A stretch of 64,000 nt of DNA, taken from the NCBI GenBank assembly GCA_964016885.1, contig OZ024751.1:37076001-37140000 (forward strand), read 5' to 3'. Shown here one piece after another: positions 13,151-58,749 of this stretch. The DNA is from Eledone cirrhosa. Taxonomy: Eukaryota. Positions within the stretch are counted from its first letter, which is position 1. Each line of letters starts with the position of its first letter. A model generated the notes under the pieces. The model made no database searches. It had not been told where the DNA came from and was given only the letters and a program-made list of their open reading frames with translations. Made by a program: the position numbers and the translations under genes.

Positions 13151-13170
13151 ATATATATATATATATACAT

Positions 13171-37415: not shown

Positions 37416-38733
37416 GTTCTTTGAGTCTCAGTCATTGATGATAGTTAACTGGAAAGTTTGTTGAAATGAATATCAAGCCACTACCTGCAGCCTCAGATAT
37501 TCAGGACCTATCTGAGGGTTCTTGCTGTTCCAAGCAAGCATGCCTTTTGAAGCGTTCCAAAAAGCGTGGCGGGGCCAATTTTCTTTAACCATCCCTGGAA
37601 ACTTTTTGAGATAGTACCTAGTGTGCCTATGACAATCGGGACCACTTTGACTTCATGGCAGTTCCAAATCCTTTTACCTCCCTCTTTAAGTCCTGGTATC
37701 GGTTAATTTTCTCCCTCTCCTTCTCTTGGACTCTTGGGTCGAATGGGCAGGCCACATCCACAATCAGGCACGATCTTTTTTCCTTGTCCAAAACCACCAG
37801 GTCAGGTCTATTCTGTTCCAGTTTCTTGTCCGTCTGTATCCTAAAATCCCACAGCACCTTCACCTGATCGTTTTCTGTCACCGACTCTGGCTTATGCTCA
37901 TACCACTTCTCAGAATGTGGTAAATTGTTTACCTTGCATAGGTGCCAGTGGATCACCCTGCCCATCATATCATGTCTCCAGCCCTTATAGTGAGTCTGGG
38001 CTAGGTGTTTACACTCGGATACAATGTGAGGCACAGTCTCCTCTCTCTCTCCACAGATCCTGCACGGTGGGATAGCCTCCTCCTTGTAAATATGGTGTTT
38101 CAACGACTTCGTTTTGAGGGCCTGCTCTTGCGCAGCCATTAGCATTCCTTCTGTAGCTTTTTAAGGTCTCCTCTTTTCAACCAGTTCCATGTCTGTGGAT
38201 CTCTGAATTCAGTTTTCTCAAAGAAGGTACTATGAAGGAATTTTTCAGTAAGGCTGCTCTTTCTCCTTGTTGATATTTCCTCCTTGGACATCCCCTGGTA
38301 TATTGTCCTCTCCTTAAGTACAATTCTGAACATTGGCTCCTTACCCTCAGTAACGTATTTGTGTAGGTTGTTTTTCTCCATCTGAACACAGTCCTCTATG
38401 CTGATAAGACCTCTTCCACCTTCAGATCTCCTTAAGTAGCGTCTATCGACATCACTCCTCTCGTAGAACATGTAGTAGATAGTCAATAGCTTCCTAGTCT
38501 TCCTATCTATTTCTTTTTGTTCAGCAACATTCCATTTCAGAATTCCCGCACTGTACCTAATAATAGACACAGCTCGGGAATTTACTGCACTTATGGCATT
38601 CCTACTGTTCAGATGTGACTTTAATACGCTCCTTACTCTCCGAATGTATTCAGATCTTATCAATTCCTTCATTTTTTTGTTCTAGATGTCATCAGCCACC
38701 AGAACACCCAAATACTTGTATCCTTCTTCAGTG

Positions 38734-38735
<2 letters not shown>
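37416..38735 (-). mobile_element. 5'-truncated R4/Dong-type non-LTR retrotransposon (RT thumb, CCHC, restriction-like endonuclease), frameshifted
   Basis: YKYLG, GGRGLISIED, CRICG..ETVPHIVSEC, RHD, LWDFRIQTD, RPDLVVLDK, IVDVACPFD, EKI.RYQDL (PD..D RLE); (AAT)n on the sense strand at both ends. Confidence 0.88.
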
Positions 38736-39436: not shown

Positions 39437-40225
39437 TAGGAGGAGGAGGAGGGGGAGGAAAAGTATATAATCAGAATTATCATCATTGTTGTCATTACTA
39501 TCAATATTACTATCAATATTATTATTATTATTATTATTATTACTACCTTTCTGATAGTTGTTATTGTTATTGTTGTCTTCGTTGTTGTGGTTTTTATTTT
39601 AAACTTATTTTACTTTAAATTCTAAATTTAAAAAAAAATTCTTTCATTTGTAATTCTTCATCTGGACACAAAGATATCAAAGACTTTTCTTGTCGTTGTC
39701 ATTTTTTATTTATTTCTCTATGTTTTATATATTGTTTACTCAATAGTCCCTGGATCGCTTTCTTCAAACAATTAGCATAAAATTCAAGAAAGTGAAAAAA
39801 GATTTCTCTACGACAGAAAATAAAAATAAAAGAAAAATCAACTTAAAAATCAACATAAAAATAAAAAAAAACAGAATACATGTGTGAGACTTTCATTAAT
39901 TTTATGTCTACTTATTTATTTACTACTACTATTACTACTACTACTATCATTATTATTACTTGTAGTAGTAGTAGTAGTAGTTGTTGTGTTAATGTTATTA
40001 TTATTATTATTATTGACGAAAGTGGATGTACGTTTTTTGAAGCTCCGTGAGTAAGCAATTTTTTGAGGATTAATTGTAGAGAATTGTTTATTTTTTGTAC
40101 CGCTGAAGCATTATAAGACATTAATTTGTATCCTGTGAAGGAATAACTCATAATATTTGGGCCTTTTGGCCCAAATATTTGAACTTTATTTTGAAAAAAA
40201 ATAATAATTTTTTTCTCAAAAAAAC

Positions 40226-42088
40226 ATGGCGGAGCCACGCCCCCTAGAGGCGGGTCTGCTGTCGTGCAACGGCGACTTGAGCGTTGAGAGGAGAGGTGAG
40301 GCGAGGAGCGCCACCAGCACGAATGTGAGCAGCGACAGTGCCAGCACCAACGGGCCGAGCGGCGCGGAAGGTGGTAACAGCGACAACACCAACACCAACA
40401 AGCCGAACAGCGCAGAAGGTGGTAATAGCGAGAGCACCAACAAGGCCAACAGCACAGAAGGTAACCACGACACAGGGGAGAACAACAACAGCAATAGCAG
40501 CAGCAACACCAACAAGAACAACAACAGTGACAACACCAACAAGAACACTTTCGCTGCTGTGGCAGCGGCTAAAAGGAGACCATGCTACAGCATCGACTTA
40601 ACCAACAGAGAGGAAAAGTTGGCCCAGGCCTGGAAAATCATAAATCAAGAGCAGACCTGGGCAAACTTAACTGTCCCGGCAGAAGCCATTGAGGCAGTGG
40701 AAAAAAGAACGGTGCATTTCAGATGCATCTCAGTAGAGACAAAGAGGGCAGCGATAATCGCCCAAGCTGACATAGAAGCCGCACTGAAATACATCAGAGA
40801 GGACACAGACTTCATAGAGAGGGGCAGGCAATACGGCACCGTTTCGGTGCTGTTCAAGTCTGAAGCCCTCGCTGTGAAGCATTCAATGACCCCTTGCAAA
40901 ACCAGCAAGGTCATAATGTACCCCTCCCACATGGGAAAACGAATAGCACGTGTGCGCATTCCCAGGATTCCACCAGGACTTGATATGTGGTGGCTCCTGG
41001 GTTGCGTAATCGTGGAAGGAACGGATACAGTCCCGGTAGAGGCAACGAGAACTGCCAGGGACGACTGGTCCGGGGTTGATCTGGAGATACTGCTCCAAAT
41101 CAGACCCGAAAACGTAAAAACAATCCCGGACCACATCCGCCTCCAAAACGGGAGGGTGTTGCATATAATGACTGAGGGCAAAAGGCCGCATTGTTTCCTT
41201 TGTGGGGAAACGACACACTTGCGAGCCTTCTGCCCTCAACTGCCGAAAAGCGCAAGGGGTCGAAAGATTCCACTGCTGGCGACGCCGGGACAAGGACCAC
41301 CAGCAACACCGTCAACAATGGAACCACCAAAATTGCACACCCAGGGGGGAAACGAGGAAAGCTCTCCCATTCCCCCTCCCCCCCAAAATACACACACGAA
41401 CAAGAACATAAACACTCACTCAGACACAAACACGCTCACAGCCACAGACCCCTCATCCTCCAGCAGTGAAGATGAGGGAAAACCAAAGTCCCCCAAAATA
41501 CAAAAAACAAAACACAAAAAAAAAAGAAATCCACAAAGCACAAACACCCCCACAAAAAAAAATACACACACCACCCACACAAACATTTTCCCCACAGCAT
41601 CACCAACACAACCACCAAAATCCCCCAAACGCAAACAAGCTAAACAGACACGAGAACAAATAGACACACAAACATCAGAAACTACAGACACCCCACCCAC
41701 AACAAACGCAGACACAATAGAAACAACACTAACAAAGCTATCACCACCACAATCACACGAACAAATAAAACCCGAGCAACAAAACATTAAAAACTTCGTG
41801 CTTGCCAGAAGGGCCAACAAGGAATTGATGGCCCATGTAGCACGAAGCACAAACATCGAAAAAGACGGGGAAACATTTGAAGCGAGCACATTTCGCGTAC
41901 CAGATAATTTGCTTCTGATGCGAATGTCGCTCGCTTCATACAAAGAAATTCGAAAGAGCTTTCCTCGGGATGTGGGAACCCCGAACGTAAAACCCACGTC
42001 AAGACTATTAAAGGGGTTCCCAAAAGAAACCCCACAAACCATGGAGGTCGAACCACCCGACCTTCACAAGACCCCGGAAGGTAAGTAA
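40226..42088 (+). CDS. LINE ORF1, gag-like nucleic-acid-binding protein with CCHC zinc knuckle (copy 1)
   Basis: 620 aa; CX2CX4HX4C knuckle CFLCGETTHLRAFC; N/S/T-rich N-terminus; basic low-complexity C-terminal part; lies upstream of APE-RT ORF. Confidence 0.9.
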   Translation: MAEPRPLEAGLLSCNGDLSVERRGEARSATSTNVSSDSASTNGPSGAEGGNSDNTNTNKPNSAEGGNSESTNKANSTEGNHDTGENNNSNSSSNTNKNNNSDNTNKNTFAAVAAAKRRPCYSIDLTNREEKLAQAWKIINQEQTWANLTVPAEAIEAVEKRTVHFRCISVETKRAAIIAQADIEAALKYIREDTDFIERGRQYGTVSVLFKSEALAVKHSMTPCKTSKVIMYPSHMGKRIARVRIPRIPPGLDMWWLLGCVIVEGTDTVPVEATRTARDDWSGVDLEILLQIRPENVKTIPDHIRLQNGRVLHIMTEGKRPHCFLCGETTHLRAFCPQLPKSARGRKIPLLATPGQGPPATPSTMEPPKLHTQGGNEESSPIPPPPQNTHTNKNINTHSDTNTLTATDPSSSSSEDEGKPKSPKIQKTKHKKKRNPQSTNTPTKKNTHTTHTNIFPTASPTQPPKSPKRKQAKQTREQIDTQTSETTDTPPTTNADTIETTLTKLSPPQSHEQIKPEQQNIKNFVLARRANKELMAHVARSTNIEKDGETFEASTFRVPDNLLLMRMSLASYKEIRKSFPRDVGTPNVKPTSRLLKGFPKETPQTMEVEPPDLHKTPEGK

Positions 42089-42117
42089 ACCTTTCCTCTC
42101 CCATTCATCCTGCCAGC

Positions 42118-45100
42118 ATGGCCATAAGAGTAGGAAGTTTAAATGTTCGTGGCCTGGGGTCGCCCTGGAAGCAAGGTCACTTGCTCAACGACCTCAGGTC
42201 ACTAGGAATGGATGTAATTGCCATCAGCGAGACCAGAATTTCCGACACACGCGCACTGGCGCCGATTTTCGACGATTATCAGATCTTTGCATCTGTTAGT
42301 CGGCCGGGAATGGGAGGTGGAGTGGCTGTGCTGTTTAGGAAATGTCTGGATCTCGAGGTAAGGTCAATCTTCCGGGATCCTGACGGAAAGTTGGTGGTCC
42401 TGGACGTGAGCAATAGCGAAGGTGGTGCCTTTAGACTGGTGGCCGTCTACGCCCCTACTGGGGCCGGTCGGCCGGACTTCTTTAGGCGCCTGGAAAACTT
42501 TCTGCTTACGTCTCGCCCTTTACTGTTAATAGGGGATTGGAATGGCATCTTAGAAGCACGCTGGGATTGTGTGGGAGTATCTGATAGGAGCGGGGGGTGC
42601 AAAAGCCTCAAGTACCTGATCAGCCAGTTTCAACTGTCTGACAGGTACCGACTAGATTTCCCTAATGCGCCAGTATGGACCTGGACCAATCGCATAGGGT
42701 CATCTAGATCGTACATAGATAGGATTTTCATTAGGAAAAGAGATAGAAATAGTGTAGGATGTCCACATTTTAAAACGGTTGCCTATTCAGATCACAAGCT
42801 TGTGATCTGTATGGTCGACCTAGATAAGACACGTAGGTTAGGACCTAGCTACTGGAAGCTAAACATGTCGTTTCCGGCACGTAAAGCTTACAGGGACCGG
42901 GTCAACAACTTAGTTAAGCAAAAGTTGACAGGGGGGGGTTGTCAACAACAGGTGGTGGGGGGCACTCAAAAGAGAGATTAGAGCAACCTCGATAGGATTT
43001 AGCAAAGAAGTAGCAATAGAGAAAAATAGAAAAGAGGAGGGGCTGATAGCTAAGTTAGACGAGGCTATTTGTAGTGGCATTGCAACAGACGTGCTAGCGG
43101 CGAGAATGGCACTAGACCATTTCTTCAATGCGAAACACGAAGGTTGCATTGTCAGAGCTAAGGCGCGTGCTCTGAGGAACGAGGGAACCAAAGCTGCCCG
43201 ATGGGCTCGCTTTGCAGAGACGCAGCGTGGAAATAAAACCACAATTCGGTCTTTGACGGATCGAGATGGACACGAACTGAGCGATTCCAAGCAGATGTGT
43301 GAGGCCTTTCGCCAGCACTTTGCTCGATTGTTCGGGAGGATGGGTGAGTCGGAGACGGCGGCGGACTTCAGTCCCTACCTCGACGGCTTGCCACGCCTCT
43401 CGACGGCCGACGCTGAGCGCTGCGAAGAGCCGATAACATCAGCCGAAATTCAGGACGCCCTTGTCGGCTGCTCGAGTCGCAAGTCACCCGGTTTGGATGG
43501 TCTGCCCTACGAGCTTTACGTAAATATGCCAGACTTGTTCTCCGATCTCCTCGAAGCGCTCTACTGCAACTGGCAGCAGAACGGGAGCATTCCCAGTTCT
43601 GTGAGCCGTGGCGTAGTGACGCTGATAAGGAAAGACGAGAACAAGAGGGACACACTAGATAATTTCAGGCCCATAACCCTGCTCAACACAGAGTTTAAGA
43701 TTTTGGCCAAGGTGTTAGCGAAAAGGTTGGCGCTTGTCGTCAAAGATTTGGTTGGGGAGGCGCAAACTTGCGCAATCCCGACCAGGTCCATACACGACAA
43801 CCTCCACCTCATGCGATACATCATAGAGAGGGTTGGGTGCAAACCTGGCTTCGGTGGGGCTCTGATCAATTTAGATCAATCGAAAGCATTCGATAGGGTC
43901 GACCATCGGTACTTGGAGGCTGTCCTCGAGGCGGCTGGCTTCGGCCCCGTCTTCAGAAGCTGGATCGCTGCAATGTACAGCGGCATCCGCTCGGTGGTCA
44001 AAGTTAATGGCCACCTCTCGGAACCGTTTCAGATCTCTCGATCGGTCCGTCAAGGGTGCCCTCTCTCCTCACTTCTGTACGTATTGACTCTTGAGCCTCT
44101 ACTGCGGAAGCTGGAGTTGTTGCAGGGCATCCCGCTCGAACCGGGACGTAGAAAGGCTGCGTCCGCTTATGCGGACGACATCACCGTGATGGTGTCGGAC
44201 ACCTGGGAAATCGAGGTGATCCGCACCCATTTGGAGGAATATGAAAGGTTGACGGGAGCAAAACTTAACCCGGAAAAGTCGGTGGGCTTGCAGCTCGGCA
44301 CCTGGAGAGGCAAGTCCATGCCGTCCAACAGCGTCGTTGGGCGCTGGACAGACGGACCGGTAAAGTTGCTCGGGGTTTGGTTCGGACCAGACCTCCAGGT
44401 GGATAAGAATTGGGACGAGGTGACGAGCAGGATAGCCAACCTCACCCAGAAATGGGCTGAGAGAAAGCTATCACTGAAAGGGCGGGCGGAGGTGGCGAAC
44501 GCGTACATCGCGTCCGTCATCTACTACCGCCTGACCGTCGTGCCTTGCCCCCGTCCACGCCTCGCCAATTTGGAACGGCTCCTTTTCAAATTTTTGTGGA
44601 GGGGACGGGTCCCGTTGGTGAGGCGGTCCATCTGCTGCCAGCACCCTCTTCGTGGAGGGCTGGGCATGCCGTGGCTAATGATGCGCAGACATGCGCTGAG
44701 GCTGCGACATCTCCAGATATTTTGCCTAAACGGTGAACAGGTGTGGTCGCCGTTTGTTAGACGGGCCTTTCCGCAGCTCATCTCTTTGACTGAGCTGCAG
44801 TCCTGGGTCAAGAAGAGACCGAGACTGGGCGACTGGCATCTGGAATGTTGCCAGGCGCTCACTGCACTCTGCAAGGTGGGCAATGCGGTCAGTGGAACTT
44901 CCACTCAAGATTTCTATAGAGGATTAGTGGAGGGCAAGTGCGATGACGTACTAGGAGAGGCTCTGGGCGTCAACGAAGTAGAACTGACCAGTATGTTCCG
45001 GAGGACTTTCGAGCCGGGGACGATGGATAACTTCCAGAAATCCCTCGCTTGGCAGTGCTACCGGGGGGCGCTGCCGGTTCGGGATAAACTCTACAGGCAC

Positions 45101-45538
45101 GGAAGTGCTGTCAGACGAACCTGCCCGAGATGCGCGCAGAGCGACGAAACCGTTCTGCACGCACTCGTCCAGTGTCCGTGCATTGCTGACTTGTGGGGTT
45201 ATGTCGAACAGCTATTGTCGCGTGTAGAACGGATCCGGCTATCGTCCGAGTCCATAGTGAAGATTGACCCGCCGCCTTCTTTTGGTCAGGAAGGGCAGGC
45301 AATTTTCCTCTGCCTGGTGGCAGTAGCGAAAGAGGTTGCATGGTGGACCAGGTTGAAAGGACTGAAGACAGACACTTTTCTCTTCGGCCAATCCCTCATC
45401 AACTTCTTCAAGTTTCACTTGGAAAGGAAGGTGAGGGTGGAGAGAGAAGTGCTGCCCCCCAGTACATTTACTGAAAGGTGGGTGAATGTGGCGAGAATGG
45501 CCCGCGTGAGTGGGCCTACTCTGATCATGCGCCTGTAG
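42118..45538 (+). pseudogene. LINE ORF2 (APE endonuclease, reverse transcriptase, CCHC) split by a +1 G frameshift (copy 1)
   Basis: G8 run at 42931-42938 versus G7 in copies 2 and 3 splits ORF2 into 287-aa and 815-aa pieces. Confidence 0.85.
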
Positions 45539-46021
45539 GCTGGTGAATTCGAGAAGGAGAGGGGTGCCCTTCCCGGGTGCCCTAGGAGCGTCGGGTGGCT
45601 CAGGACTGGTGGGGTGCTTGAGTCAACCCTGGGTGGTGATCCCTCTTATTGGGGAACTTTCATTGTTGTATTTTTATTGTTATTTTGTTTTTTTGGTTAT
45701 TTATACTTACTCGATCTCTATGTAAACCCCCACTGTCCCTGTCTATTGTGTTGTCCCCTATATGTCGGCCCTTGTGGCCAATAAATGAAATCATTATTAT
45801 TATTATTATTGACGAAAGTGGATGTACGTTTTTTGAAGCTCCGTGAGTAAGCAATTTTTTGAGGATTAATTGTAGAGAATTGTTTATTTTTTGTACCGCT
45901 GAAGCATTATAAGACATTAATTTGTATCCTGTGAAGGAATAACTCATAATATTTGGGCCTTTTGGCCCAAATATTTGAACTTTATTTTGAAAAAAAATAA
46001 TAATTTTTTTCTCAAAAAAAC

Positions 46022-47884
46022 ATGGCGGAGCCACGCCCCCTAGAGGCGGGTCTGCTGTCGTGCAACGGCGACTTGAGCGTTGAGAGGAGAGGTGAGGCGA
46101 GGAGCGCCACCAGCACGAATGTGAGCAGCGACAGTGCCAGCACCAACGGGCCGAGCGGCGCGGAAGGTGGTAACAGCGACAACACCAACACCAACAAGCC
46201 GAACAGCGCAGAAGGTGGTAATAGCGAGAGCACCAACAAGGCCAACAGCACAGAAGGTAACCACGACACAGGGGAGAACAACAACAGCAATAGCAGCAGC
46301 AACACCAACAAGAACAACAACAGTGACAACACCAACAAGAACACTTTCGCTGCTGTGGCAGCGGCTAAAAGGAGACCATGCTACAGCATCGACTTAACCA
46401 ACAGAGAGGAAAAGTTGGCCCAGGCCTGGAAAATCATAAATCAAGAGCAGACCTGGGCAAACTTAACTGTCCCGGCAGAAGCCATTGAGGCAGTGGAAAA
46501 AAGAACGGTGCATTTCAGATGCATCTCAGTAGAGACAAAGAGGGCAGCGATAATCGCCCAAGCTGACATAGAAGCCGCACTGAAATACATCAGAGAGGAC
46601 ACAGACTTCATAGAGAGGGGCAGGCAATACGGCACCGTTTCGGTGCTGTTCAAGTCTGAAGCCCTCGCTGTGAAGCATTCAATGACCCCTTGCAAAACCA
46701 GCAAGGTCATAATGTACCCCTCCCACATGGGAAAACGAATAGCACGTGTGCGCATTCCCAGGATTCCACCAGGACTTGATATGTGGTGGCTCCTGGGTTG
46801 CGTAATCGTGGAAGGAACGGATACAGTCCCGGTAGAGGCAACGAGAACTGCCAGGGACGACTGGTCCGGGGTTGATCTGGAGATACTGCTCCAAATCAGA
46901 CCCGAAAACGTAAAAACAATCCCGGACCACATCCGCCTCCAAAACGGGAGGGTGTTGCATATAATGACTGAGGGCAAAAGGCCGCATTGTTTCCTTTGTG
47001 GGGAAACGACACACTTGCGAGCCTTCTGCCCTCAACTGCCGAAAAGCGCAAGGGGTCGAAAGATTCCACTGCTGGCGACGCCGGGACAAGGACCACCAGC
47101 AACACCGTCAACAATGGAACCACCAAAATTGCACACCCAGGGGGGAAACGAGGAAAGCTCTCCCATTCCCCCTCCCCCCCAAAATACACACACGAACAAG
47201 AACATAAACACTCACTCAGACACAAACACGCTCACAGCCACAGACCCCTCATCCTCCAGCAGTGAAGATGAGGGAAAACCAAAGTCCCCCAAAATACAAA
47301 AAACAAAACACAAAAAAAAAAGAAATCCACAAAGCACAAACACCCCCACAAAAAAAAATACACACACCACCCACACAAACATTTTCCCCACAGCATCACC
47401 AACACAACCACCACAATCCCCCAAACGCAAACAAGCTAAACAGACACAAGAACAAATAGACACACAAACATCAGAAACTACAGACACCCCACCCACAACA
47501 AACGCAGACACAATAGAAACAACACTAACAAAGCTATCACCACCACAATCACACGAACAAATAAAACCCGAGCAACAAAACATTAAAAACTTCGTGCTTG
47601 CCAGAAGGGCCAACAAGGAATTGATGGCCCATGTAGCACGAAGCACAAACATCGAAAAAGACGGGGAAACATTTGAAGCGAGCACATTTCGCGTACCAGA
47701 TAATTTGCTTCTGATGCGAATGTCGCTCGCTTCATACAAAGAAATTCGAAAGAGCTTTCCTCGGGATGTGGGAACCCCGAACGTAAAACCCACGTCAAGA
47801 CTATTAAAGGGGTTCCCAAAAGAAACCCCACAAACCATGGAGGTCGAACCACCCGACCTTCACAAGACCCCGGAAGGTAAGTAA
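46022..47884 (+). CDS. LINE ORF1 (copy 2)
   Basis: 620 aa, zinc knuckle; differs from copy 1 at about 2 residues. Confidence 0.9.
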   Translation: MAEPRPLEAGLLSCNGDLSVERRGEARSATSTNVSSDSASTNGPSGAEGGNSDNTNTNKPNSAEGGNSESTNKANSTEGNHDTGENNNSNSSSNTNKNNNSDNTNKNTFAAVAAAKRRPCYSIDLTNREEKLAQAWKIINQEQTWANLTVPAEAIEAVEKRTVHFRCISVETKRAAIIAQADIEAALKYIREDTDFIERGRQYGTVSVLFKSEALAVKHSMTPCKTSKVIMYPSHMGKRIARVRIPRIPPGLDMWWLLGCVIVEGTDTVPVEATRTARDDWSGVDLEILLQIRPENVKTIPDHIRLQNGRVLHIMTEGKRPHCFLCGETTHLRAFCPQLPKSARGRKIPLLATPGQGPPATPSTMEPPKLHTQGGNEESSPIPPPPQNTHTNKNINTHSDTNTLTATDPSSSSSEDEGKPKSPKIQKTKHKKKRNPQSTNTPTKKNTHTTHTNIFPTASPTQPPQSPKRKQAKQTQEQIDTQTSETTDTPPTTNADTIETTLTKLSPPQSHEQIKPEQQNIKNFVLARRANKELMAHVARSTNIEKDGETFEASTFRVPDNLLLMRMSLASYKEIRKSFPRDVGTPNVKPTSRLLKGFPKETPQTMEVEPPDLHKTPEGK

Positions 47885-47913
47885 ACCTTTCCTCTCCCAT
47901 TCATCCTGCCAGC

Positions 47914-50900
47914 ATGGCCATAAGAGTAGGAAGTTTAAATGTTCGTGGCCTGGGGTCGCCCTGGAAGCAAGGTCACTTGCTCAACGACCTCAGGTCACTA
48001 GGAATGGATGTAATTGCCATCAGCGAGACCAGAATTTCCGACACACGCGCACTGGCGCCGATTTTCGACGATTATCAGATCTTTGCATCTGTTAGTCGGC
48101 CGGGAATGGGAGGTGGAGTGGCTGTGCTGTTTAGGAAATGTCTGGATCTCGAGGTAAGGTCAATCTTCCGGGATCCTGACGGAAAGTTGGTGGTCCTGGA
48201 CGTGAGCAATAGCGAAGGTGGTGCCTTTAGACTGGTGGCCGTCTACGCCCCTACTGGGGCCGGTCGGCCGGACTTCTTTAGGCGCCTGGAAAACTTTCTG
48301 CTTACGTCTCGCCCTTTACTGTTAATAGGGGATTGGAATGGCATCTTAGAAGCACGCTGGGATTGTGTGGGAGTATCTGATAGGAGCGGGGGGTGCAAAA
48401 GCCTCAAGTACCTGATCAGCCAGTTTCAACTGTCTGACAGGTACCGACTAGATTTCCCTAATGCGCCAGTATGGACCTGGACCAATCGCATAGGGTCATC
48501 TAGATCGTACATAGATAGGATTTTCATTAGGAAAAGAGATAGAAATAGTGTAGGATGTCCACATTTTAAAACGGTTGCCTATTCAGATCACAAGCTTGTG
48601 ATCTGTATGGTCGACCTAGATAAGACACGTAGGTTAGGACCTAGCTACTGGAAGCTAAACATGTCGTTTCCGGCACGTAAAGCTTACAGGGACCGGGTCA
48701 ACAACTTAGTTAAGCAAAAGTTGACAGGGGGGGTTGTCAACAACAGGTGGTGGGGGGCACTCAAAAGAGAGATTAGAGCAACCTCGATAGGATTTAGCAA
48801 AGAAGTAGCAATAGAGAAAAATAGAAAGGAGGAGGGGCTGATAGCTAAGTTAGACGAGGCTATTTGTAGTGGCATTGCAACAGACGTGCTAGCGGCGAGA
48901 ATGGCACTAGACCATTTCTTCAATGCGAAACACGAAGGTTGCATTGTCAGAGCTAAGGCGCGTGCTCTGAGGAACGAGGGAACCAAAGCTGCCCGATGGG
49001 CTCGCTTTGCAGAGACGCAGCGTGGAAATAAAACCACAATTCGGTCTTTGACGGATCGAGATGGACACGAACTGAGCGATTCCAAGCAGATGTGTGAGGC
49101 CTTTCGCCAGCACTTTGCTCGATTGTTCGGGAGGATGGGTGAGTCGGAGACGGCGGCGGACTTCAGTCCCTACCTCGACGGCTTGCCACGCCTCTCGACG
49201 GCCGACGCTGAGCGCTGCGAAGAGCCGATAACATCAGCCGAAATTCAGGACGCCCTTGTCGGCTGCTCGAGTCGCAAGTCACCCGGTTTGGATGGTCTGC
49301 CCTACGAGCTTTACGTAAATATGCCAGACTTGTTCTCCGATCTCCTCGAAGCGCTCTACTGCAACTGGCAGCAGAACGGGAGCATTCCCAGTTCTGTGAG
49401 CCGTGGCGTAGTGACGCTGATAAGGAAAGACGAGAACAAGAGGGACACACTAGATAATTTCAGGCCCATAACCCTGCTCAACACAGAGTTTAAGATTTTG
49501 GCCAAGGTGTTAGCGAAAAGGTTGGCGCTTGTCGTCAAAGATTTGGTTGGGGAGGCGCAAACTTGCGCAATCCCGACCAGGTCCATACACGACAACCTCC
49601 ACCTCATGCGATACATCATAGAGAGGGTTGGGTGCAAACCTGGCTTCGGTGGGGCTCTGATCAATTTAGATCAATCGAAAGCATTCGATAGGGTCGACCA
49701 TCGGTACTTGGAGGCTGTCCTCGAGGCGGCTGGCTTCGGCCCCGTCTTCAGAAGCTGGATCGCTGCAATGTACAGCGGCATCCGCTCGGTGGTCAAAGTT
49801 AATGGCCACCTCTCGGAACCGTTTCAGATCTCTCGATCGGTCCGTCAAGGGTGCCCTCTCTCCTCACTTCTGTACGTATTGACTCTTGAGCCTCTACTGC
49901 GGAAGCTGGAGTTGTTGCAGGGCATCCCGCTCGAACCGGGACGTAGAAAGGCTGCGTCCGCTTATGCGGACGACATCACCGTGATGGTGTCGGACACCTG
50001 GGAAATCGAGGTGATCCGCACCCATTTGGAGGAATATGAAAGGTTGACGGGAGCAAAACTTAACCCGGAAAAGTCGGTGGGCTTGCAGCTCGGCACCTGG
50101 AGAGGCAAGTCCATGCCGTCCAACAGCGTCGTTGGGCGCTGGACAGACGGACCGGTAAAGTTGCTCGGGGTTTGGTTCGGACCAGACCTCCAGGTGGATA
50201 AGAATTGGGACGAGGTGACGAGCAGGATAGCCAACCTCACCCAGAAATGGGCTGAGAGAAAGCTATCACTGAAAGGGCGGGCGGAGGTGGCGAACGCGTA
50301 CATCGCGTCCGTCATCTACTACCGCCTGACCGTCGTGCCTTGCCCCCGTCCACGCCTCGCCAATTTGGAACGGCTCCTTTTCAAATTTTTGTGGAGGGGA
50401 CGGGTCCCGTTGGTGAGGCGGTCCATCTGCTGCCAGCACCCTCTTCGTGGAGGGCTGGGCATGCCGTGGCTAATGATGCGCAGACATGCGCTGAGGCTGC
50501 GACATCTCCAGATATTTTGCCTAAACGGTGAACAGGTGTGGTCGCCGTTTGTTAGACGGGCCTTTCCGCAGCTCATCTCTTTGACTGAGCTGCAGTCCTG
50601 GGTCAAGAAGAGACCGAGACTGGGCGACTGGCATCTGGAATGTTGCCAGGCGCTCACTGCACTCTGCAAGGTGGGCAATGCGGTCAGTGGAACTTCCACT
50701 CAAGATTTCTATAGAGGATTAGTGGAGGGCAAGTGCGATGACGTACTAGGAGAGGCTCTGGGCGTCAACGAAGTAGAACTGACCAGTATGTTCCGGAGGA
50801 CTTTCGAGCCGGGGACGATGGATAACTTCCAGAAATCCCTCGCTTGGCAGTGCTACCGGGGGGCGCTGCCGGTTCGGGATAAACTCTACAGGCACGGAAG

Positions 50901-51333
50901 TGCTGTCAGACGAACCTGCCCGAGATGCGCGCAGAGCGACGAAACCGTTCTGCACGCACTCGTCCAGTGTCCGTGCATTGCTGACTTGTGGGGTTATGTC
51001 GAACAGCTATTGTCGCGTGTAGAACGGATCCGGCTATCGTCCGAGTCCATAGTGAAGATTGACCCGCCGCCTTCTTTTGGTCAGGAAGGGCAGGCAATTT
51101 TCCTCTGCCTGGTGGCAGTAGCGAAAGAGGTTGCATGGTGGACCAGGTTGAAAGGACTGAAGACAGACACTTTTCTCTTCGGCCAATCCCTCATCAACTT
51201 CTTCAAGTTTCACTTGGAAAGGAAGGTGAGGGTGGAGAGAGAAGTGCTGCCCCCCAGTACATTTACTGAAAGGTGGGTGAATGTGGCGAGAATGGCCCGC
51301 GTGAGTGGGCCTACTCTGATCATGCGCCTGTAG
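47914..51333 (+). CDS. LINE ORF2: APE endonuclease + reverse transcriptase + C-terminal CCHC (copy 2)
   Basis: APE motifs LNVRGL, ISET, VYAP, GDWN, IDRIF, SDH; RT motifs SPGLDG, FRPITLLN, LDQSKAFDRV, RQGCPLS, YADD, GGLG; CPRC...HALVQC. Confidence 0.97.
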   Translation: MAIRVGSLNVRGLGSPWKQGHLLNDLRSLGMDVIAISETRISDTRALAPIFDDYQIFASVSRPGMGGGVAVLFRKCLDLEVRSIFRDPDGKLVVLDVSNSEGGAFRLVAVYAPTGAGRPDFFRRLENFLLTSRPLLLIGDWNGILEARWDCVGVSDRSGGCKSLKYLISQFQLSDRYRLDFPNAPVWTWTNRIGSSRSYIDRIFIRKRDRNSVGCPHFKTVAYSDHKLVICMVDLDKTRRLGPSYWKLNMSFPARKAYRDRVNNLVKQKLTGGVVNNRWWGALKREIRATSIGFSKEVAIEKNRKEEGLIAKLDEAICSGIATDVLAARMALDHFFNAKHEGCIVRAKARALRNEGTKAARWARFAETQRGNKTTIRSLTDRDGHELSDSKQMCEAFRQHFARLFGRMGESETAADFSPYLDGLPRLSTADAERCEEPITSAEIQDALVGCSSRKSPGLDGLPYELYVNMPDLFSDLLEALYCNWQQNGSIPSSVSRGVVTLIRKDENKRDTLDNFRPITLLNTEFKILAKVLAKRLALVVKDLVGEAQTCAIPTRSIHDNLHLMRYIIERVGCKPGFGGALINLDQSKAFDRVDHRYLEAVLEAAGFGPVFRSWIAAMYSGIRSVVKVNGHLSEPFQISRSVRQGCPLSSLLYVLTLEPLLRKLELLQGIPLEPGRRKAASAYADDITVMVSDTWEIEVIRTHLEEYERLTGAKLNPEKSVGLQLGTWRGKSMPSNSVVGRWTDGPVKLLGVWFGPDLQVDKNWDEVTSRIANLTQKWAERKLSLKGRAEVANAYIASVIYYRLTVVPCPRPRLANLERLLFKFLWRGRVPLVRRSICCQHPLRGGLGMPWLMMRRHALRLRHLQIFCLNGEQVWSPFVRRAFPQLISLTELQSWVKKRPRLGDWHLECCQALTALCKVGNAVSGTSTQDFYRGLVEGKCDDVLGEALGVNEVELTSMFRRTFEPGTMDNFQKSLAWQCYRGALPVRDKLYRHGSAVRRTCPRCAQSDETVLHALVQCPCIADLWGYVEQLLSRVERIRLSSESIVKIDPPPSFGQEGQAIFLCLVAVAKEVAWWTRLKGLKTDTFLFGQSLINFFKFHLERKVRVEREVLPPSTFTERWVNVARMARVSGPTLIMRL

Positions 51334-51816
51334 GCTGGTGAATTCGAGAAGGAGAGGGGTGCCCTTCCCGGGTGCCCTAGGAGCGTCGGGTGGCTCAGGA
51401 CTGGTGGGGTGCTTGAGTCAACCCTGGGTGGTGATCCCTCTTATTGGGGAACTTTCATTGTTGTATTTTTATTGTTATTTTGTTTTTTTGGTTATTTATA
51501 CTTACTCGATCTCTATGTAAACCCCCACTGTCCCTGTCTATTGTGTTGTCCCCTATATGTCGGCCCTTGTGGCCAATAAATGAAATCATTATTATTATTA
51601 TTATTGACGAAAGTGGATGTACGTTTTTTGAAGCTCCGTGAGTAAGCAATTTTTTGAGGATTAATTGTAGAGAATTGTTTATTTTTTGTACCGCTGAAGC
51701 ATTATAAGACATTAATTTGTATCCTGTGAAGGAATAACTCATAATATTTGGGCCTTTTGGCCCAAATATTTGAACTTTATTTTGAAAAAAAATAATAATT
51801 TTTTTCTCAAAAAAAC

Positions 51817-53679
51817 ATGGCGGAGCCACGCCCCCTAGAGGCGGGTCTGCTGTCGTGCAACGGCGACTTGAGCGTTGAGAGGAGAGGTGAGGCGAGGAGC
51901 GCCACCAGCACGAATGTGAGCAGCGACAGTGCCAGCACCAACGGGCCGAGCGGCGCGGAAGGTGGTAACAGCGACAACACCAACACCAACAAGCCGAACA
52001 GCGCAGAAGGTGGTAATAGCGAGAGCACCAACAAGGCCAACAGCACAGAAGGTAACCACGACACAGGGGAGAACAACAACAGCAATAGCAGCAGCAACAC
52101 CAACAAGAACAACAACAGTGACAACACCAACAAGAACACTTTCGCTGCTGTGGCAGCGGCTAAAAGGAGACCATGCTACAGCATCGACTTAACCAACAGA
52201 GAGGAAAAGTTGGCCCAGGCCTGGAAAATCATAAATCAAGAGCAGACCTGGGCAAACTTAACTGTCCCGGCAGAAGCCATTGAGGCAGTGGAAAAAAGAA
52301 CGGTGCATTTCAGATGCATCTCAGTAGAGACAAAGAGGGCAGCGATAATCGCCCAAGCTGACATAGAAGCCGCACTGAAATACATCAGAGAGGACACAGA
52401 CTTCATAGAGAGGGGCAGGCAATACGGCACCGTTTCGGTGCTGTTCAAGTCTGAAGCCCTCGCTGTGAAGCATTCAATGACCCCTTGCAAAACCAGCAAG
52501 GTCATAATGTACCCCTCCCACATGGGAAAACGAATAGCACGTGTGCGCATTCCCAGGATTCCACCAGGACTTGATATGTGGTGGCTCCTGGGTTGCGTAA
52601 TCGTGGAAGGAACGGATACAGTCCCGGTAGAGGCAACGAGAACTGCCAGGGACGACTGGTCCGGGGTTGATCTGGAGATACTGCTCCAAATCAGACCCGA
52701 AAACGTAAAAACAATCCCGGACCACATCCGCCTCCAAAACGGGAGGGTGTTGCATATAATGACTGAGGGCAAAAGGCCGCATTGTTTCCTTTGTGGGGAA
52801 ACGACACACTTGCGAGCCTTCTGCCCTCAACTGCCGAAAAGCGCAAGGGGTCGAAAGATTCCACTGCTGGCGACGCCGGGACAAGGACCACCAGCAACAC
52901 CGTCAACAATGGAACCACCAAAATTGCACACCCAGGGGGGAAACGAGGAAAGCTCTCCCATTCCCCCTCCCCCCCAAAATACACACACGAACAAGAACAT
53001 AAACACTCACTCAGACACAAACACGCTCACAGCCACAGACCCCTCATCCTCCAGCAGTGAAGATGAGGGAAAACCAAAGTCCCCCAAAATACAAAAAACA
53101 AAACACAAAAAAAAAAGAAATCCACAAAGCACAAACACCCCCACAAAAAAAAATACACACACCACCCACACAAACATTTTCCCCACAGCATCACCAACAC
53201 AACCACCAAAATCCCCCAAACGCAAACAAGCTAAACAGACACAAGAACAAATAGACACACAAACATCAGAAACTACAGACACCCCACCCACAACAAACGC
53301 AGACACAATAGAAACAACACTAACAAAGCTATCACCACCACAATCACACGAACAAATAAAACCCGAGCAACAAAACATTAAAAACTTCGTGCTTGCCAGA
53401 AGGGCCAACAAGGAATTGATGGCCCATGTAGCACGAAGCACAAACATCGAAAAAGACGGGGAAACATTTGAAGCGAGCACATTTCGCGTACCAGATAATT
53501 TGCTTCTGATGCGAATGTCGCTCGCTTCATACAAAGAAATTCGAAAGAGCTTTCCTCGGGATGTGGGAACCCCGAACGTAAAACCCACGTCAAGACTATT
53601 AAAGGGGTTCCCAAAAGAAACCCCACAAACCATGGAGGTCGAACCACCCGACCTTCACAAGACCCCGGAAGGTAAGTAA
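51817..53679 (+). CDS. LINE ORF1 (copy 3)
   Basis: 620 aa, zinc knuckle CFLCGETTHLRAFC. Confidence 0.9.
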   Translation: MAEPRPLEAGLLSCNGDLSVERRGEARSATSTNVSSDSASTNGPSGAEGGNSDNTNTNKPNSAEGGNSESTNKANSTEGNHDTGENNNSNSSSNTNKNNNSDNTNKNTFAAVAAAKRRPCYSIDLTNREEKLAQAWKIINQEQTWANLTVPAEAIEAVEKRTVHFRCISVETKRAAIIAQADIEAALKYIREDTDFIERGRQYGTVSVLFKSEALAVKHSMTPCKTSKVIMYPSHMGKRIARVRIPRIPPGLDMWWLLGCVIVEGTDTVPVEATRTARDDWSGVDLEILLQIRPENVKTIPDHIRLQNGRVLHIMTEGKRPHCFLCGETTHLRAFCPQLPKSARGRKIPLLATPGQGPPATPSTMEPPKLHTQGGNEESSPIPPPPQNTHTNKNINTHSDTNTLTATDPSSSSSEDEGKPKSPKIQKTKHKKKRNPQSTNTPTKKNTHTTHTNIFPTASPTQPPKSPKRKQAKQTQEQIDTQTSETTDTPPTTNADTIETTLTKLSPPQSHEQIKPEQQNIKNFVLARRANKELMAHVARSTNIEKDGETFEASTFRVPDNLLLMRMSLASYKEIRKSFPRDVGTPNVKPTSRLLKGFPKETPQTMEVEPPDLHKTPEGK

Positions 53680-53708
53680 ACCTTTCCTCTCCCATTCATC
53701 CTGCCAGC

Positions 53709-56700
53709 ATGGCCATAAGAGTAGGAAGTTTAAATGTTCGTGGCCTGGGGTCGCCCTGGAAGCAAGGTCACTTGCTCAACGACCTCAGGTCACTAGGAAT
53801 GGATGTAATTGCCATCAGCGAGACCAGAATTTCCGACACACGCGCACTGGCGCCGATTTTCGACGATTATCAGATCTTTGCATCTGTTAGTCGGCCGGGA
53901 ATGGGAGGTGGAGTGGCTGTGCTGTTTAGGAAATGTCTGGATCTCGAGGTAAGGTCAATCTTCCGGGATCCTGACGGAAAGTTGGTGGTCCTGGACGTGA
54001 GCAATAGCGAAGGTGGTGCCTTTAGACTGGTGGCCGTCTACGCCCCTACTGGGGCCGGTCGGCCGGACTTCTTTAGGCGCCTGGAAAACTTTCTGCTTAC
54101 GTCTCGCCCTTTACTGTTAATAGGGGATTGGAATGGCATCTTAGAAGCACGCTGGGATTGTGTGGGAGTATCTGATAGGAGCGGGGGGTGCAAAAGCCTC
54201 AAGTACCTGATCAGCCAGTTTCAACTGTCTGACAGGTACCGACTAGATTTCCCTAATGCGCCAGTATGGACCTGGACCAATCGCATAGGGTCATCTAGAT
54301 CGTACATAGATAGGATTTTCATTAGGAAAAGAGATAGAAATAGTGTAGGATGTCCACATTTTAAAACGGTTGCCTATTCAGATCACAAGCTTGTGATCTG
54401 TATGGTCGACCTAGATAAGACACGTAGGTTAGGACCTAGCTACTGGAAGCTAAACATGTCGTTTCCGGCACGTAAAGCTTACAGGGACCGGGTCAACAAC
54501 TTAGTTAAGCAAAAGTTGACAGGGGGGGTTGTCAACAACAGGTGGTGGGGGGCACTCAAAAGAGAGATTAGAGCAACCTCGATAGGATTTAGCAAAGAAG
54601 TAGCAATAGAGAAAAATAGAAAGGAGGAGGGGCTGATAGCTAAGTTAGACGAGGCTATTTGTAGTGGCATTGCAACAGACGTGCTAGCGGCGAGAATGGC
54701 ACTAGACCATTTCTTCAATGCGAAACACGAAGGTTGCATTGTCAGAGCTAAGGCGCGTGCTCTGAGGAACGAGGGAACCAAAGCTGCCCGATGGGCTCGC
54801 TTTGCAGAGACGCAGCGTGGAAATAAAACCACAATTCGGTCTTTGATGGATCGAGATGGACACGAACTGAGCGATTCCAAGCAGATGTGTGAGGCCTTTC
54901 GCCAGCACTTTGCTCGATTGTTCGGGAGGATGGGTGAGTCGGAGACGGCGGCGGACTTCAGTCCCTACCTCGACGGCTTGCCACGCCTCTCGACGGCCGA
55001 CGCTGAGCGCTGCGAAGAGCCGATAACATCAGCCGAAATTCAGGACGCCCTTGTCGGCTGCTCGAGTCGCAAGTCACCCGGTTTGGATGGTCTGCCCTAC
55101 GAGCTTTACGTAAATATGCCAGACTTGTTCTCCGATCTCCTCGAAGCGCTCTACTGCAACTGGCAGCAGAACGGGAGCATTCCCAGTTCTGTGAGCCGTG
55201 GCGTAGTGACGCTGATAAGGAAAGACGAGAACAAGAGGGACACACTAGATAATTTCAGGCCCATAACCCTGCTCAACACAGAGTTTAAGATTTTGGCCAA
55301 GGTGTTAGCGAAAAGGTTGGCGCTTGTCGTCAAAGATTTGGTTGGGGAGGCGCAAACTTGCGCAATCCCGACCAGGTCCATACACGACAACCTCCACCTC
55401 ATGCGATACATCATAGAGAGGGTTGGGTGCAAACCTGGCTTCGGTGGGGCTCTGATCAATTTAGATCAATCGAAAGCATTCGATAGGGTCGACCATCGGT
55501 ACTTGGAGGCTGTCCTCGAGGCGGCTGGCTTCGGCCCCGTCTTCAGAAGCTGGATCGCTGCAATGTACAGCGGCATCCGCTCGGTGGTCAAAGTTAATGG
55601 CCACCTCTCGGAACCGTTTCAGATCTCTCGATCGGTCCGTCAAGGGTGCCCTCTCTCCTCACTTCTGTACGTATTGACTCTTGAGCCTCTACTGCGGAAG
55701 CTGGAGTTGTTGCAGGGCATCCCGCTCGAACCGGGACGTAGAAAGGCTGCGTCCGCTTATGCGGACGACATCACCGTGATGGTGTCGGACACCTCGGAAA
55801 TCGAGGTGATCCGCACCCATTTGGAGGAATATGAAAGGTTGACGGGAGCAAAACTTAACCCGGAAAAGTCGGTGGGCTTGCAGCTCGGCACCTGGAGAGG
55901 CAAGTCCATGCCGTCCAACAGCGTCGTTGGGCGCTGGACAGACGGACCGGTAAAGTTGCTCGGGGTTTGGTTCGGACCAGACCTCCAGGTGGATAAGAAT
56001 TGGGACGAGGTGACGAGCAGGATAGCCAACCTCACCCAGAAATGGGCTGAGAGAAAGCTATCACTGAAAGGGCGGGCGGAGGTGGCGAACGCGTACATCG
56101 CGTCCGTCATCTACTACCGCCTGACCGTCGTGCCTTGCCCCCGTCCACGCCTCGCCAATTTGGAACGGCTCCTTTTCAAATTTTTGTGGAGGGGACGGGT
56201 CCCGTTGGTGAGGCGGTCCATCTGCTGCCAGCACCCTCTTCGTGGAGGGCTGGGCATGCCGTGGCTAATGATGCGCAGACATGCGCTGAGGCTGCGACAT
56301 CTCCAGATATTTTGCCTAAACGGTGAACAGGTGTGGTCGCCGTTTGTTAGACGGGCCTTTCCGCAGCTCATCTCTTTGACTGAGCTGCAGTCCTGGGTCA
56401 AGAAGAGACCGAGACTGGGCGACTGGCATCTGGAATGTTGCCAGGCGCTCACTGCACTCTGCAAGGTGGGCAATGCGGTCAGTGGAACTTCCACTCAAGA
56501 TTTCTATAGAGGATTAGTGGAGGGCAAGTGCGATGACGTACTAGGAGAGGCTCTGGGCGTCAACGAAGTAGAACTGACCAGTATGTTCCGGAGGACTTTC
56601 GAGCCGGGGACGATGGATAACTTCCAGAAATCCCTCGCTTGGCAGTGCTACCGGGGGGCGCTGCCGGTTCGGGATAAACTCTACAGGCACGGAAGTGCTG

Positions 56701-57128
56701 TCAGACGAACCTGCCCGAGATGCGCGCAGAGCGACGAAACCGTTCTGCACGCACTCGTCCAGTGTCCGTGCATTGCTGACTTGTGGGGTTATGTCGAACA
56801 GCTATTGTCGCGTGTAGAACGGATCCGGCTATCGTCCGAGTCCATAGTGAAGATTGACCCGCCGCCTTCTTTTGGTCAGGAAGGGCAGGCAATTTTCCTC
56901 TGCCTGGTGGCAGTAGCGAAAGAGGTTGCATGGTGGACCAGGTTGAAAGGACTGAAGACAGACACTTTTCTCTTCGGCCAATCCCTCATCAACTTCTTCA
57001 AGTTTCACTTGGAAAGGAAGGTGAGGGTGGAGAGAGAAGTGCTGCCCCCCAGTACATTTACTGAAAGGTGGGTGAATGTGGCGAGAATGGCCCGCGTGAG
57101 TGGGCCTACTCTGATCATGCGCCTGTAG
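53709..57128 (+). CDS. LINE ORF2 APE-RT-CCHC (copy 3)
   Basis: 1139 aa intact; all catalytic motifs as in copy 2. Confidence 0.97.
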   Translation: MAIRVGSLNVRGLGSPWKQGHLLNDLRSLGMDVIAISETRISDTRALAPIFDDYQIFASVSRPGMGGGVAVLFRKCLDLEVRSIFRDPDGKLVVLDVSNSEGGAFRLVAVYAPTGAGRPDFFRRLENFLLTSRPLLLIGDWNGILEARWDCVGVSDRSGGCKSLKYLISQFQLSDRYRLDFPNAPVWTWTNRIGSSRSYIDRIFIRKRDRNSVGCPHFKTVAYSDHKLVICMVDLDKTRRLGPSYWKLNMSFPARKAYRDRVNNLVKQKLTGGVVNNRWWGALKREIRATSIGFSKEVAIEKNRKEEGLIAKLDEAICSGIATDVLAARMALDHFFNAKHEGCIVRAKARALRNEGTKAARWARFAETQRGNKTTIRSLMDRDGHELSDSKQMCEAFRQHFARLFGRMGESETAADFSPYLDGLPRLSTADAERCEEPITSAEIQDALVGCSSRKSPGLDGLPYELYVNMPDLFSDLLEALYCNWQQNGSIPSSVSRGVVTLIRKDENKRDTLDNFRPITLLNTEFKILAKVLAKRLALVVKDLVGEAQTCAIPTRSIHDNLHLMRYIIERVGCKPGFGGALINLDQSKAFDRVDHRYLEAVLEAAGFGPVFRSWIAAMYSGIRSVVKVNGHLSEPFQISRSVRQGCPLSSLLYVLTLEPLLRKLELLQGIPLEPGRRKAASAYADDITVMVSDTSEIEVIRTHLEEYERLTGAKLNPEKSVGLQLGTWRGKSMPSNSVVGRWTDGPVKLLGVWFGPDLQVDKNWDEVTSRIANLTQKWAERKLSLKGRAEVANAYIASVIYYRLTVVPCPRPRLANLERLLFKFLWRGRVPLVRRSICCQHPLRGGLGMPWLMMRRHALRLRHLQIFCLNGEQVWSPFVRRAFPQLISLTELQSWVKKRPRLGDWHLECCQALTALCKVGNAVSGTSTQDFYRGLVEGKCDDVLGEALGVNEVELTSMFRRTFEPGTMDNFQKSLAWQCYRGALPVRDKLYRHGSAVRRTCPRCAQSDETVLHALVQCPCIADLWGYVEQLLSRVERIRLSSESIVKIDPPPSFGQEGQAIFLCLVAVAKEVAWWTRLKGLKTDTFLFGQSLINFFKFHLERKVRVEREVLPPSTFTERWVNVARMARVSGPTLIMRL

Positions 57129-57518
57129 GCTGGTGAATTCGAGAAGGAGAGGGGTGCCCTTCCCGGGTGCCCTAGGAGCGTCGGGTGACTCAGGACTGGT
57201 GGGGTGCTTGAGTCAACCCTGGGTGGTGATCCCTCTTATTGGGGAACTTTCATTGTTGTATTTTTATTGTTATTTTGTTTTTGTTTTTTTGTTATTTATA
57301 CTTACTCGATCTCTATGTAAACCCCCACTGTCCCTGTCTATTGTGTTGTCCCCTATATGTCGGCCCTTGTGGCCAATAAATGAAATCATTATTATTATTA
57401 TTATTTTTTTTTTGGAGAATAGAAAATTGAGTAAGAATGTCATTATAGATGGAATACGAAAAAAAAAGCTTCAAGGAGAGAGAGAGATAGAGAGAAAGAG
57501 AGAAAGAGAGAAAGAGAG

Positions 57519-57579
<61 letters not shown>

Positions 57580-58062
57580 CTGATTGATTTAATTTTATTG
57601 AATGTTACTGGGTTTTTTTCTTATATACATTTTTTTTTATATTTATGTCTAAATATTTTTATTTCATTTTATTGTTTTCTTTCCGTTAGTGTTATTACTT
57701 TTTTTTTGTATATATTTATTTATTTGTTCAACTATTTTTTTTATTTTCTTCTTATTTTGTTTAAATATCAGATCGGAAATGAAAGTCTCGTGGAGCAGCT
57801 TTAGATTACCTCTAATAAAGTAGACATCAGGTGAGTTGCAATAGAATTGTTAAATGAAACTAAAAGATTAAACTACGTGATTTTGTATGTAATTTAAGGG
57901 TGTGTTTTTCTTATACATATTTTTATCTTTGTTGGTTACTTTTGGTTTTAGTTTACTCTAATAAATTTTAGATTTACTATTTACTTTAGAAACGAACATG
58001 GGAACATAGCAGTGGAAAACAATTGTGTATTGTTGTCATTTGATCATTTTATTCCTGTACGC

Positions 58063-58394: not shown

Positions 58395-58576
58395 TTATAC
58401 TTTGGGAGGGTCATGTTGCCAATAAGAAACACACGCATATCATATATATATATATATATTAATAAGAGGAATTCCAACTTTGTCTGATTTACTCGTTTTA
58501 TTTACAATCCTTTAAAATATATATAATGGTATTATAATGAAATAGTATGATAGAATATTAAATTCTAAGTGTTAAT

Positions 58577-58615
58577 TGAACAAGTACTTTCATGCTTTCG
58601 CAATCTTCAGGTTCA
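58577..58615 (-). ncRNA. Minimal hammerhead ribozyme (left arm of palindrome)
   Basis: TGAAC-CTGAAGA-T-TGC(GAAA)GCA-T-GAA-AGTACT-T-GTTCA. Confidence 0.8.
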
Positions 58616-58710
58616 TGATATGTGGTGACAGTCGAGTTTGCAATTTTCAACTGTCAATTTTCACAATTTTCACAGTTGAAAATTGCAAACTCGACTGTCA
58701 CCACATATCA

Positions 58711-58749
58711 TGAACCTGAAGATTGCGAAAGCATGAAAGTAATTGTTCA
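58711..58749 (+). ncRNA. Minimal hammerhead ribozyme (right arm; stem III point mutation)
   Basis: TGAAC-CTGAAGA-TTGCGAAAGCAT-GAAAGTAATT-GTTCA. Confidence 0.7.

Follow-up and report, generated by a model that had tools for sequence, protein, structure and literature searches.

Within a 64,000-nucleotide stretch of the Eledone cirrhosa genome (assembly GCA_964016885.1, contig OZ024751.1, positions 37,076,001 to 37,140,000 of the forward strand; hereafter the window, in whose own numbering positions are given), three full-length copies of one long interspersed element (LINE) stand head to tail between 39997 and 57405, with an identical (ATT)6 run at each of the four joints. We propose that this triplet arose in two steps, through two successive insertions at one ATT site followed by unequal crossing-over, and we put the probability of this reading at roughly 0.55. 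The element is a LINE of the L1 group and probably belongs to the Tx1 clade. It should be noted that the array is known from assembled sequence alone, and that its correctness as assembled is an assumption.

The array lies on the plus strand. It opens with an (ATT)6 run at 39997–40014, likely the original target site or upstream target-site duplication, followed by copy 1 (founder A; 40015–45792, 5778 bp), junction 1 (45793–45810), copy 2 (45811–51587, 5777 bp), junction 2 (51588–51605, probably a duplicate of junction 1), copy 3 (founder B; 51606–57387, 5782 bp) and the right boundary run (57388–57405), after which T8 comes next. Aligned as units, the three copies share the same start and end bases, and a self-BLAST of the window gave 99.88% identity across 11,614 bp of the array. 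At all four joints the ATT run is stopped on both sides by flanking letters, which vary (GTT or ATC before, GAC or TTT after), and the common sequence is exactly 18 nt. The junction runs have the same length as both boundary runs. The window has 27 other perfect ATT/AAT runs of at least three units, and not one of them is six units long. Poly(A) was sought at the 3′ end of every copy and found at none, and AATAAA ends 7 nt short of each downstream (ATT)6 run. The description given in a first-pass annotation, of three full-length head-to-tail copies with (ATT)6 at every joint and no poly(A), therefore holds as sequence. Its word "complete" applies to the length of all three copies but not to their coding capacity: in copy 1, open reading frame (ORF) 1 is intact (40226–42088), whereas an additional G at 42931 disrupts the frame of ORF2, which begins at 42118. 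Both frames are open in copy 2 (ORF1 46022–47884, ORF2 47914–51333) and in copy 3.

Eight events distinguish the three copies, the change in the 3′ untranslated region (UTR) being counted once. Copy 1 is set apart by three variants (unit positions 1638, 2917 and 3019) and copy 3 by four events (3243, 4191, 5584 and 5675–5686), and a single variant is private to copy 2 (unit position 1604, window 47414), which indicates that copy 2 has a history of its own. Copy 2 is copy-3-like up to unit position 3019 and copy-1-like from 3243, a hybrid with a 5′ half resembling copy 3 and a 3′ half resembling copy 1. Indeed, 43034–49051 recurs at 48829–54846, that is, 6,018 bp in register with one mismatch, and a 223-bp interval identical in all three copies (48829–49051) would hold the exchange, or a mis-join. 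An order of this kind has a chance probability of 1/35 one-sided and 2/35 two-sided. Because the variants are ordered, one copy would be the product of a recombination within the elements themselves, somewhere in the interval from unit position 3019 to 3243, and not between the 18-bp repeats. The order fits a dimer enlarged by unequal exchange, or an assembly mis-join, rather than three insertions. The first-pass annotation had favoured repeated insertion, which fits worse than recombination given this order, and had offered recombination between target-site duplications as an alternative: recombination does appear to have made one copy, but within the elements. Its "few private variants" per copy are indeed few, yet they follow an order along the unit, and copy 2 has just one.

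Under the two-step origin, the element's endonuclease would first nick the start of the ATT run, and the AUU-repeat end of the RNA would pair with the nicked (AAT)n strand and prime reverse transcription; AATAAA would put RNA cleavage inside the ATT run. Pairing of a 3′ repeat with the target has been reported for the I factor, R1Bm and R2Ol (as summarised in PMC6007223). No poly(A) would be copied, and the ATT run would be duplicated, so that the site could be hit again. Both founders, A and B, would stem from one young donor lineage. In the second step, copy B on one chromatid would mispair with copy A on another, and an exchange between unit positions 3019 and 3243 would duplicate the stretch that runs from the 3′ half of A across the junction through the 5′ half of B. 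Since this step copies a junction, there are two new (ATT)6 runs to explain instead of three. Rough dates of about 0.17–0.19 million years ago for the founder split and about 0.02 million years for the duplication were obtained with 0.0036 changes per site per million years (PMC13282606), used as a per-lineage rate.

To place the array within its family, reads of four of the 24 listed sequencing runs were compared with the left flank plus copy 1, minus 39915–40022 and 45783–45850. In run X1, 370 bp of flank showed no difference at a depth of 5.22, seven long element contigs had depths of 1760–2173, and depth near the element ends was ~1680 (5′ UTR) and ~2340 (3′ UTR). The element-to-flank depth ratio of 322–448, which comes from one flank contig in one run and whose summed depths are not a copy number, suggests a family of some hundreds of young copies, most of them reaching the 5′ end. 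For comparison, Octopus vulgaris carries 421 young L1-Tx1 insertions of at least 90% length and at most 2% divergence, in 13 recently active families with a mean of ~5.4 kb (PMC13282606, Table 1). Given the nearly flat X1 depth along the element and these 421 near-full-length insertions, three untruncated copies are unsurprising; the earlier view of them as exceptional is thus weakened, as it is by the truncated relic described below.

Six long X1 contigs covering ORF1 and early ORF2 (record 2 excluded) differ from copy 1 by 0–1 letters, and the states of copy 1 at 41652, 42931 and 43033 are in the minority in this run. At 45695, copies 1 and 2 have a G which the X1 contig covering that position lacks (depth 1500/1500) and which looks like a derived mark shared by these two copies. 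By comparison with homologues, Met380 of copy 3 appears derived, and residue 696 suggests the opposite polarity, with Ser/Thr in the closest relatives and Trp in copies 1 and 2.

Other runs contained related forms. In run X5, which bears another organism label, a sister form occurs at high depth and differs at many near-fixed positions, and run X6 has a near-identical form with two differences in 1168 bp at a depth of 6–12. A closely similar element is thus seen under three organism labels, at a depth of ~2000 against a flank of 5 (X1), in the thousands (X5) and at 6–12 (X6), a contrast which points to recent bursts that took place separately in related lineages, or to transfer. In ORF1, record 17 of X6 has one extra 48-bp repeat unit relative to the window (22 unaligned letters plus a 26-bp overlap), and record 2 of X1 breaks off at the same spot with 20 letters left, which is indirectly consistent with the same extra unit. 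A restriction-site-associated DNA (RAD) run, X24, in which 72,002 of 80,837 reads were 90–95% alike, was set aside.

The window holds one older, strongly 5′-truncated member of the family on the minus strand (18898–18990), comprising the last ~90–115 bp only and matching the 3′ terminus at 88% identity over 86 bp. It is followed by a degenerate (ATT)n run and sits within the ATT-rich tail of a short interspersed element (SINE). This relic shows that the family does truncate and that the 3′ ATT is not peculiar to the array. Both family loci in the window (2/2) lie at an ATT run; a target-specific Tx1 family has been defined as one in which over 20% of flanks fall into a single target class (PMC4494074). 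The relic also belongs to a chain in a single orientation (18479–19270, minus strand) made of a SINE, an ATT-rich tail, the LINE relic, (ATT)7, two SINEs and (ATT)5, as if elements of two kinds had inserted repeatedly into ATT tails.

SINEs are abundant in the window, where one copy gave ~20 BLAST matches, and occur in a short and a long form, the latter with ~28 nt more before the tail; from A- and B-box-like motifs we take them to be tRNA-headed. Eleven SINE 3′ ends were located with a motif derived from that of the LINE, a choice that makes the comparison partly circular; NTTAT directly follows 10 of them and is found at 1.1% of window positions. Among the eight with a recognisable head, four have duplications of 12–23 bp (0–2 mismatches) that start directly at the SINE end with ATTATT (three) or GTTATT (one). 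Besides these, a head-to-tail pair of 5′-truncated long-form SINEs occupies 15723–16040 (plus strand); a 12-bp duplication (15723 and 15876), beginning with ATTATT, brackets its first copy, and its second copy has the most LINE-like 3′ end. These features show that the local machinery adds no tail and duplicates 12–23 bp starting at a short ATT repeat, and they suggest that the preference is for ATTATT rather than for long microsatellites. Because local SINE duplications span this range, an 18-bp duplication is plausible for the LINE. The earlier proposal of a Tx1-like LINE with a reusable ATT site is accordingly plausible, with indirect support from the relic at (ATT)n and from SINE duplications that start ATTATT.

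Compared with the last 45 nt of the LINE, one long-form SINE end scored 32, a value reached by none of 2000 shuffles and none of 379 LINE-body windows, and it was the best non-relic match among 4635 windows, the next scoring 27. The remaining 10 of the 11 SINE ends scored 19–24, which is the background range. An RTE element may instead be the partner of this SINE; squid and cuttlefish SINEs contain RTE-derived parts (PMC5786205).

Several observations weigh against the two-step origin. The order of the variants is a weak test, since its chance probability is 1/10 when the two indel events are dropped and substitutions only are kept, and these indels sit in runs of G or T, which are error-prone in assemblies; moreover, an out-of-register join of two dimer haplotypes would give the identical variant pattern. 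The X5 contigs do not show the deletion at 45695 (0 of depth 70.9). The founders share their 5′ end, so distinct truncations, the clearest sign of a double insertion, are absent. All three array copies appear to be without the 48-bp ORF1 unit, and both founders would therefore come from one sub-lineage or from one insertion; A and B being nearer kin than two random family members also fits the duplication of a single insertion. As for the SINEs, three of the eight headed copies have no duplication and one has just 8 bp, and one of 56 mismatched control pairs scored 15, inside the range of true pairs (12–17). This SINE evidence bears on the array LINE only if the LINE mobilises those SINEs.

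The last point on the founders leads to a history in which one insertion was doubled via its two 18-bp (ATT)6 repeats, by unequal crossover, slippage or an excised circle, after which the copies diverged and a later unequal crossover produced the third. The (ATT)6 at the junction would then follow automatically, and the identical termini and the apparent lack in all three copies of the 48-bp unit found elsewhere in the family are as expected. We nevertheless regard this as unlikely, as 18 bp is little homology and A and B should share substitutions that predate the duplication, whereas the X1 contigs, 0–1 letters off copy 1, would require the duplication to have been almost immediate.

Also unlikely in our judgement, at a similar level, is that the third copy is artefactual, the genome holding a dimer (or less) and haplotypes or reads having been chained out of register. 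A 6,018-bp repeat with one mismatch has the appearance of such a mis-join, and the family has hundreds of near-identical copies. Yet the copies retain distinct variants and copy 2 has a private base; in addition, assemblers collapse tandem repeats more often than they expand them.

We consider it improbable that the dimer formed in one event, with the reverse transcriptase (RT) jumping between two RNAs, off the 5′ end of the first and onto the 3′ end of the next, or else copying a read-through RNA made by a tandem donor elsewhere, and with recombination adding the third copy. This would account for common donor marks and full-length 5′ ends, and with AATAAA 7 nt from the end read-through into the next copy is conceivable; but an internal junction would have the tail length of the RNA or donor, with no reason to match the local (ATT)6, and A and B differ by 7–8 events. 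Three separate insertions at a self-renewing (ATT)6 site, although in keeping with the same run at all joints and with a family whose young copies seem mostly full length (so that three untruncated ones are not improbable), predict neither the ordered variants (1/35) nor the 3′ UTR G common to copies 1 and 2 and require a third exact 18-bp duplication, which makes this the least probable history.

The identity of the element was examined on copy 3. Its ORF2 (53709–57128, 1139 aa) encodes an apurinic-type endonuclease, a reverse transcriptase with YADD at residue 684 and a C-terminal zf-RVT region, corresponding to the Pfam matches PF03372 (residues 7–226), PF00078 (509–753) and PF13966 (974–1026). 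The closest solved structure is human L1 ORF2p (E = 2.7e-57 over residues 4–854), followed at a distance by R2 (E = 2.6e-22), in a comparison that is coarse, as few LINE clades have structures. With its N-terminal apurinic-type endonuclease, RT and C-terminal zinc-binding region, and being nearer L1 than R2, the element is an L1-group LINE. Named relatives of ORF2 are from cephalopods, namely Argonauta hians (59% over 45% of ORF2) and Acanthosepion pharaonis (49%).

ORF1 of copy 3 (51817–53679, 620 aa) is predicted to carry two domains resembling RNA-recognition motifs (RRM) and one CCHC knuckle (52783–52824), between low-complexity ends. Neither Pfam on the whole protein, Transposase_22 included, nor a word-indexed search gave a match. 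A model of residues 110–350, built from 68 aligned sequences (the query and 67 of the 150 listed matches, picked for coverage), had a predicted local distance difference test score (pLDDT) of 92, compared with a low-confidence fold (pLDDT 36) from the single sequence alone. Its best structural matches were tandem-RRM proteins, and the RRMs gave Z 9.2 over 82 residues (root-mean-square deviation 2.5). The ORF1 profile matched CCHC knuckles, the knuckle being located C-terminal to the RRMs. A type I ORF1 of this kind, with RRM and CCHC knuckle, has been tied to Tx1 in non-mammalian animals (PMC5203782); the feature is present in the array LINE and also occurs outside Tx1. In an RT tree of 31 regions the LINE groups (100/99) with 12 rows including one named cuttlefish protein, and since the tree held no labelled Tx1 reference, Tx1 membership is likely rather than demonstrated. 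An origin of ZCCHC3 from such ORF1s was not found in the available text of PMC10351740. The 24-nt pattern of the LINE 3′ end had no match in prokaryote genomes and none in viral contigs, and a metagenome scan gave three distant loci at 25–30% identity, which were set aside.

The 5′ UTR (40015–40225 and equivalents; 51606–51816 in copy 3, 211 nt) is AT-rich and predicted to fold into three or four hairpins (z −3.96, none of 200 shuffles as good), one with a perfect 12-bp stem (51743–51770), and it matched no Rfam family. The 3′ UTR of copy 3 (57129–57387) contains a short predicted hairpin with the loop CUUGU and AATAAA (57375) followed by 7 nt. Folded against shuffles, the LINE end gave no signal (z 0.03) and none of six ends was notable; this hairpin is broken in the relic, and is only a motif. 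Two Rfam matches both fell far below threshold, and the idea that the junction holds a self-cleaving ribozyme or another known RNA was rejected.

Additional repeats and signals were noted around the array. Between (ATT)4 and (ATT)10 at 37416–38735 (minus strand), 1.3 kb from the array and in opposite orientation, lies the disrupted 3′ portion of a different LINE, which carries a zinc finger and a motif resembling PD..D and ends in AAT on its own strand; Pfam gave a weak zf-RVT match alone and the Atlas unnamed clusters, and we take it to be Dong/R4-like. At 58455–58871, a 417-bp near-perfect foldback (97% self-complementary, short centre) adjoins (AT)n runs and is possibly a miniature inverted-repeat transposable element or a foldback element. 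Exon-like signals (AG...GTGAGT) were spotted by eye at ~57770–57835 (plus strand), 370 bp right of the array; because each frame has a stop by hand reading, this is at most a non-coding exon. The window also contains a minisatellite (22467–23072; 40-bp unit, 162-bp higher-order period) and a dispersed repeat of ~550 bp, 88% identical between 5334–5876 and 12598–13178.

Tandem arrays of this type have a precedent in the R1 array of Drosophila melanogaster, which has 33-nt duplications and later unequal exchange, on a dimer-then-expansion route (McGurk and Barbash 2018, PMC5932611). Both arrays consist of head-to-tail copies of an element without long terminal repeats, with a target duplication kept (here apparently) at each junction. 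R1, in contrast, targets 28S ribosomal DNA in an array of 0.5–1.3 Mb, whereas three units of an L1-group LINE occupy an ATT run in Eledone, and the exchange interval of the triplet is still readable from variants.

Tx1 families at microsatellites include Kibi at (TC)n, Koshi at (TTC)n and crocodilian families at (TTCC)n/(TTTC)n, and SINEU-3, which Tx1 mobilises, builds tandems around a single duplication through successive insertions (Kojima 2015, PMC4494074). Like Kibi and Koshi, the Eledone element is an L1-group LINE with an apurinic-type endonuclease and a possible target preference; unlike theirs, its flanks consist of (ATT)6 and not of TC or TTC repeats, the available text of PMC4494074 names no Tx1 family directed at ATT, and the host is an octopod-like mollusc instead of a vertebrate. 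The L1-Tx1 families of Octopus vulgaris are of the same size and the same order of abundance, but the available text on them has no target sites, tails or tandem arrays (PMC13282606).

The same trinucleotide repeat class is the insertion site of Dong, a member of the R4 clade that is TAA-microsatellite-specific and the sole TAA entry listed in the available text of PMC3812793; Dong has been recently active in octopus (PMC13282606), and R4 elements have a restriction-like endonuclease (PMC4640811). The array LINE differs from Dong in its endonuclease, which is N-terminal and apurinic-type and not restriction-like after the RT, in its two ORFs and in its sense strand ending in ATT. Human LINE-1 has the same ORF2 layout and target duplications of similar length. 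Affiliation with vertebrate-type L1 is nonetheless not indicated, as the array LINE has no poly(A) at any 3′ end, its ORF1 is predicted to fold as RRM-RRM-CCHC and is not a Transposase_22 protein, and its young copies seem mostly untruncated. Searches of the accessible literature listed no cephalopod Tx1 element that targets ATT or stands in tandem, although Repbase Reports, subscription papers and the supplements of PMC4494074 may hold one. The triplet has the look of a real and well-preserved new instance of a published process, with no mechanism new in kind.

A broader scheme can be offered tentatively, as one that we think doubtful as a whole. In it, an octopod L1/Tx1 lineage would have replaced poly(A) by an RNA that ends in AUU and has a short 3′ recognition hairpin, would target ATT runs and insert mostly at full length, and would supply the enzyme for the very abundant tRNA-headed SINEs, whose 3′ end it shares. 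With every insertion the target would be renewed, giving head-to-tail chains of LINEs and SINEs from which unequal exchange would then build nascent LINE satellites; the triplet would represent the first expansion step, with its crossover within 223 bp.

If real, the array would provide a clean snapshot, outside Drosophila, of the two-step route from mobile element to satellite, with a readable exchange point. It would moreover add ATT to the known Tx1-type targets, and reveal a young, apparently intact and mostly full-length LINE family in an octopod-like genome. SINEs account for a large share of octopus genomes (PMC13282606, PMC8967140), yet the available text of these two papers names no LINE as their partner. 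The more useful lead may thus be the 3′ end common to the LINE and the local SINE, which points to a possible LINE–SINE pairing.

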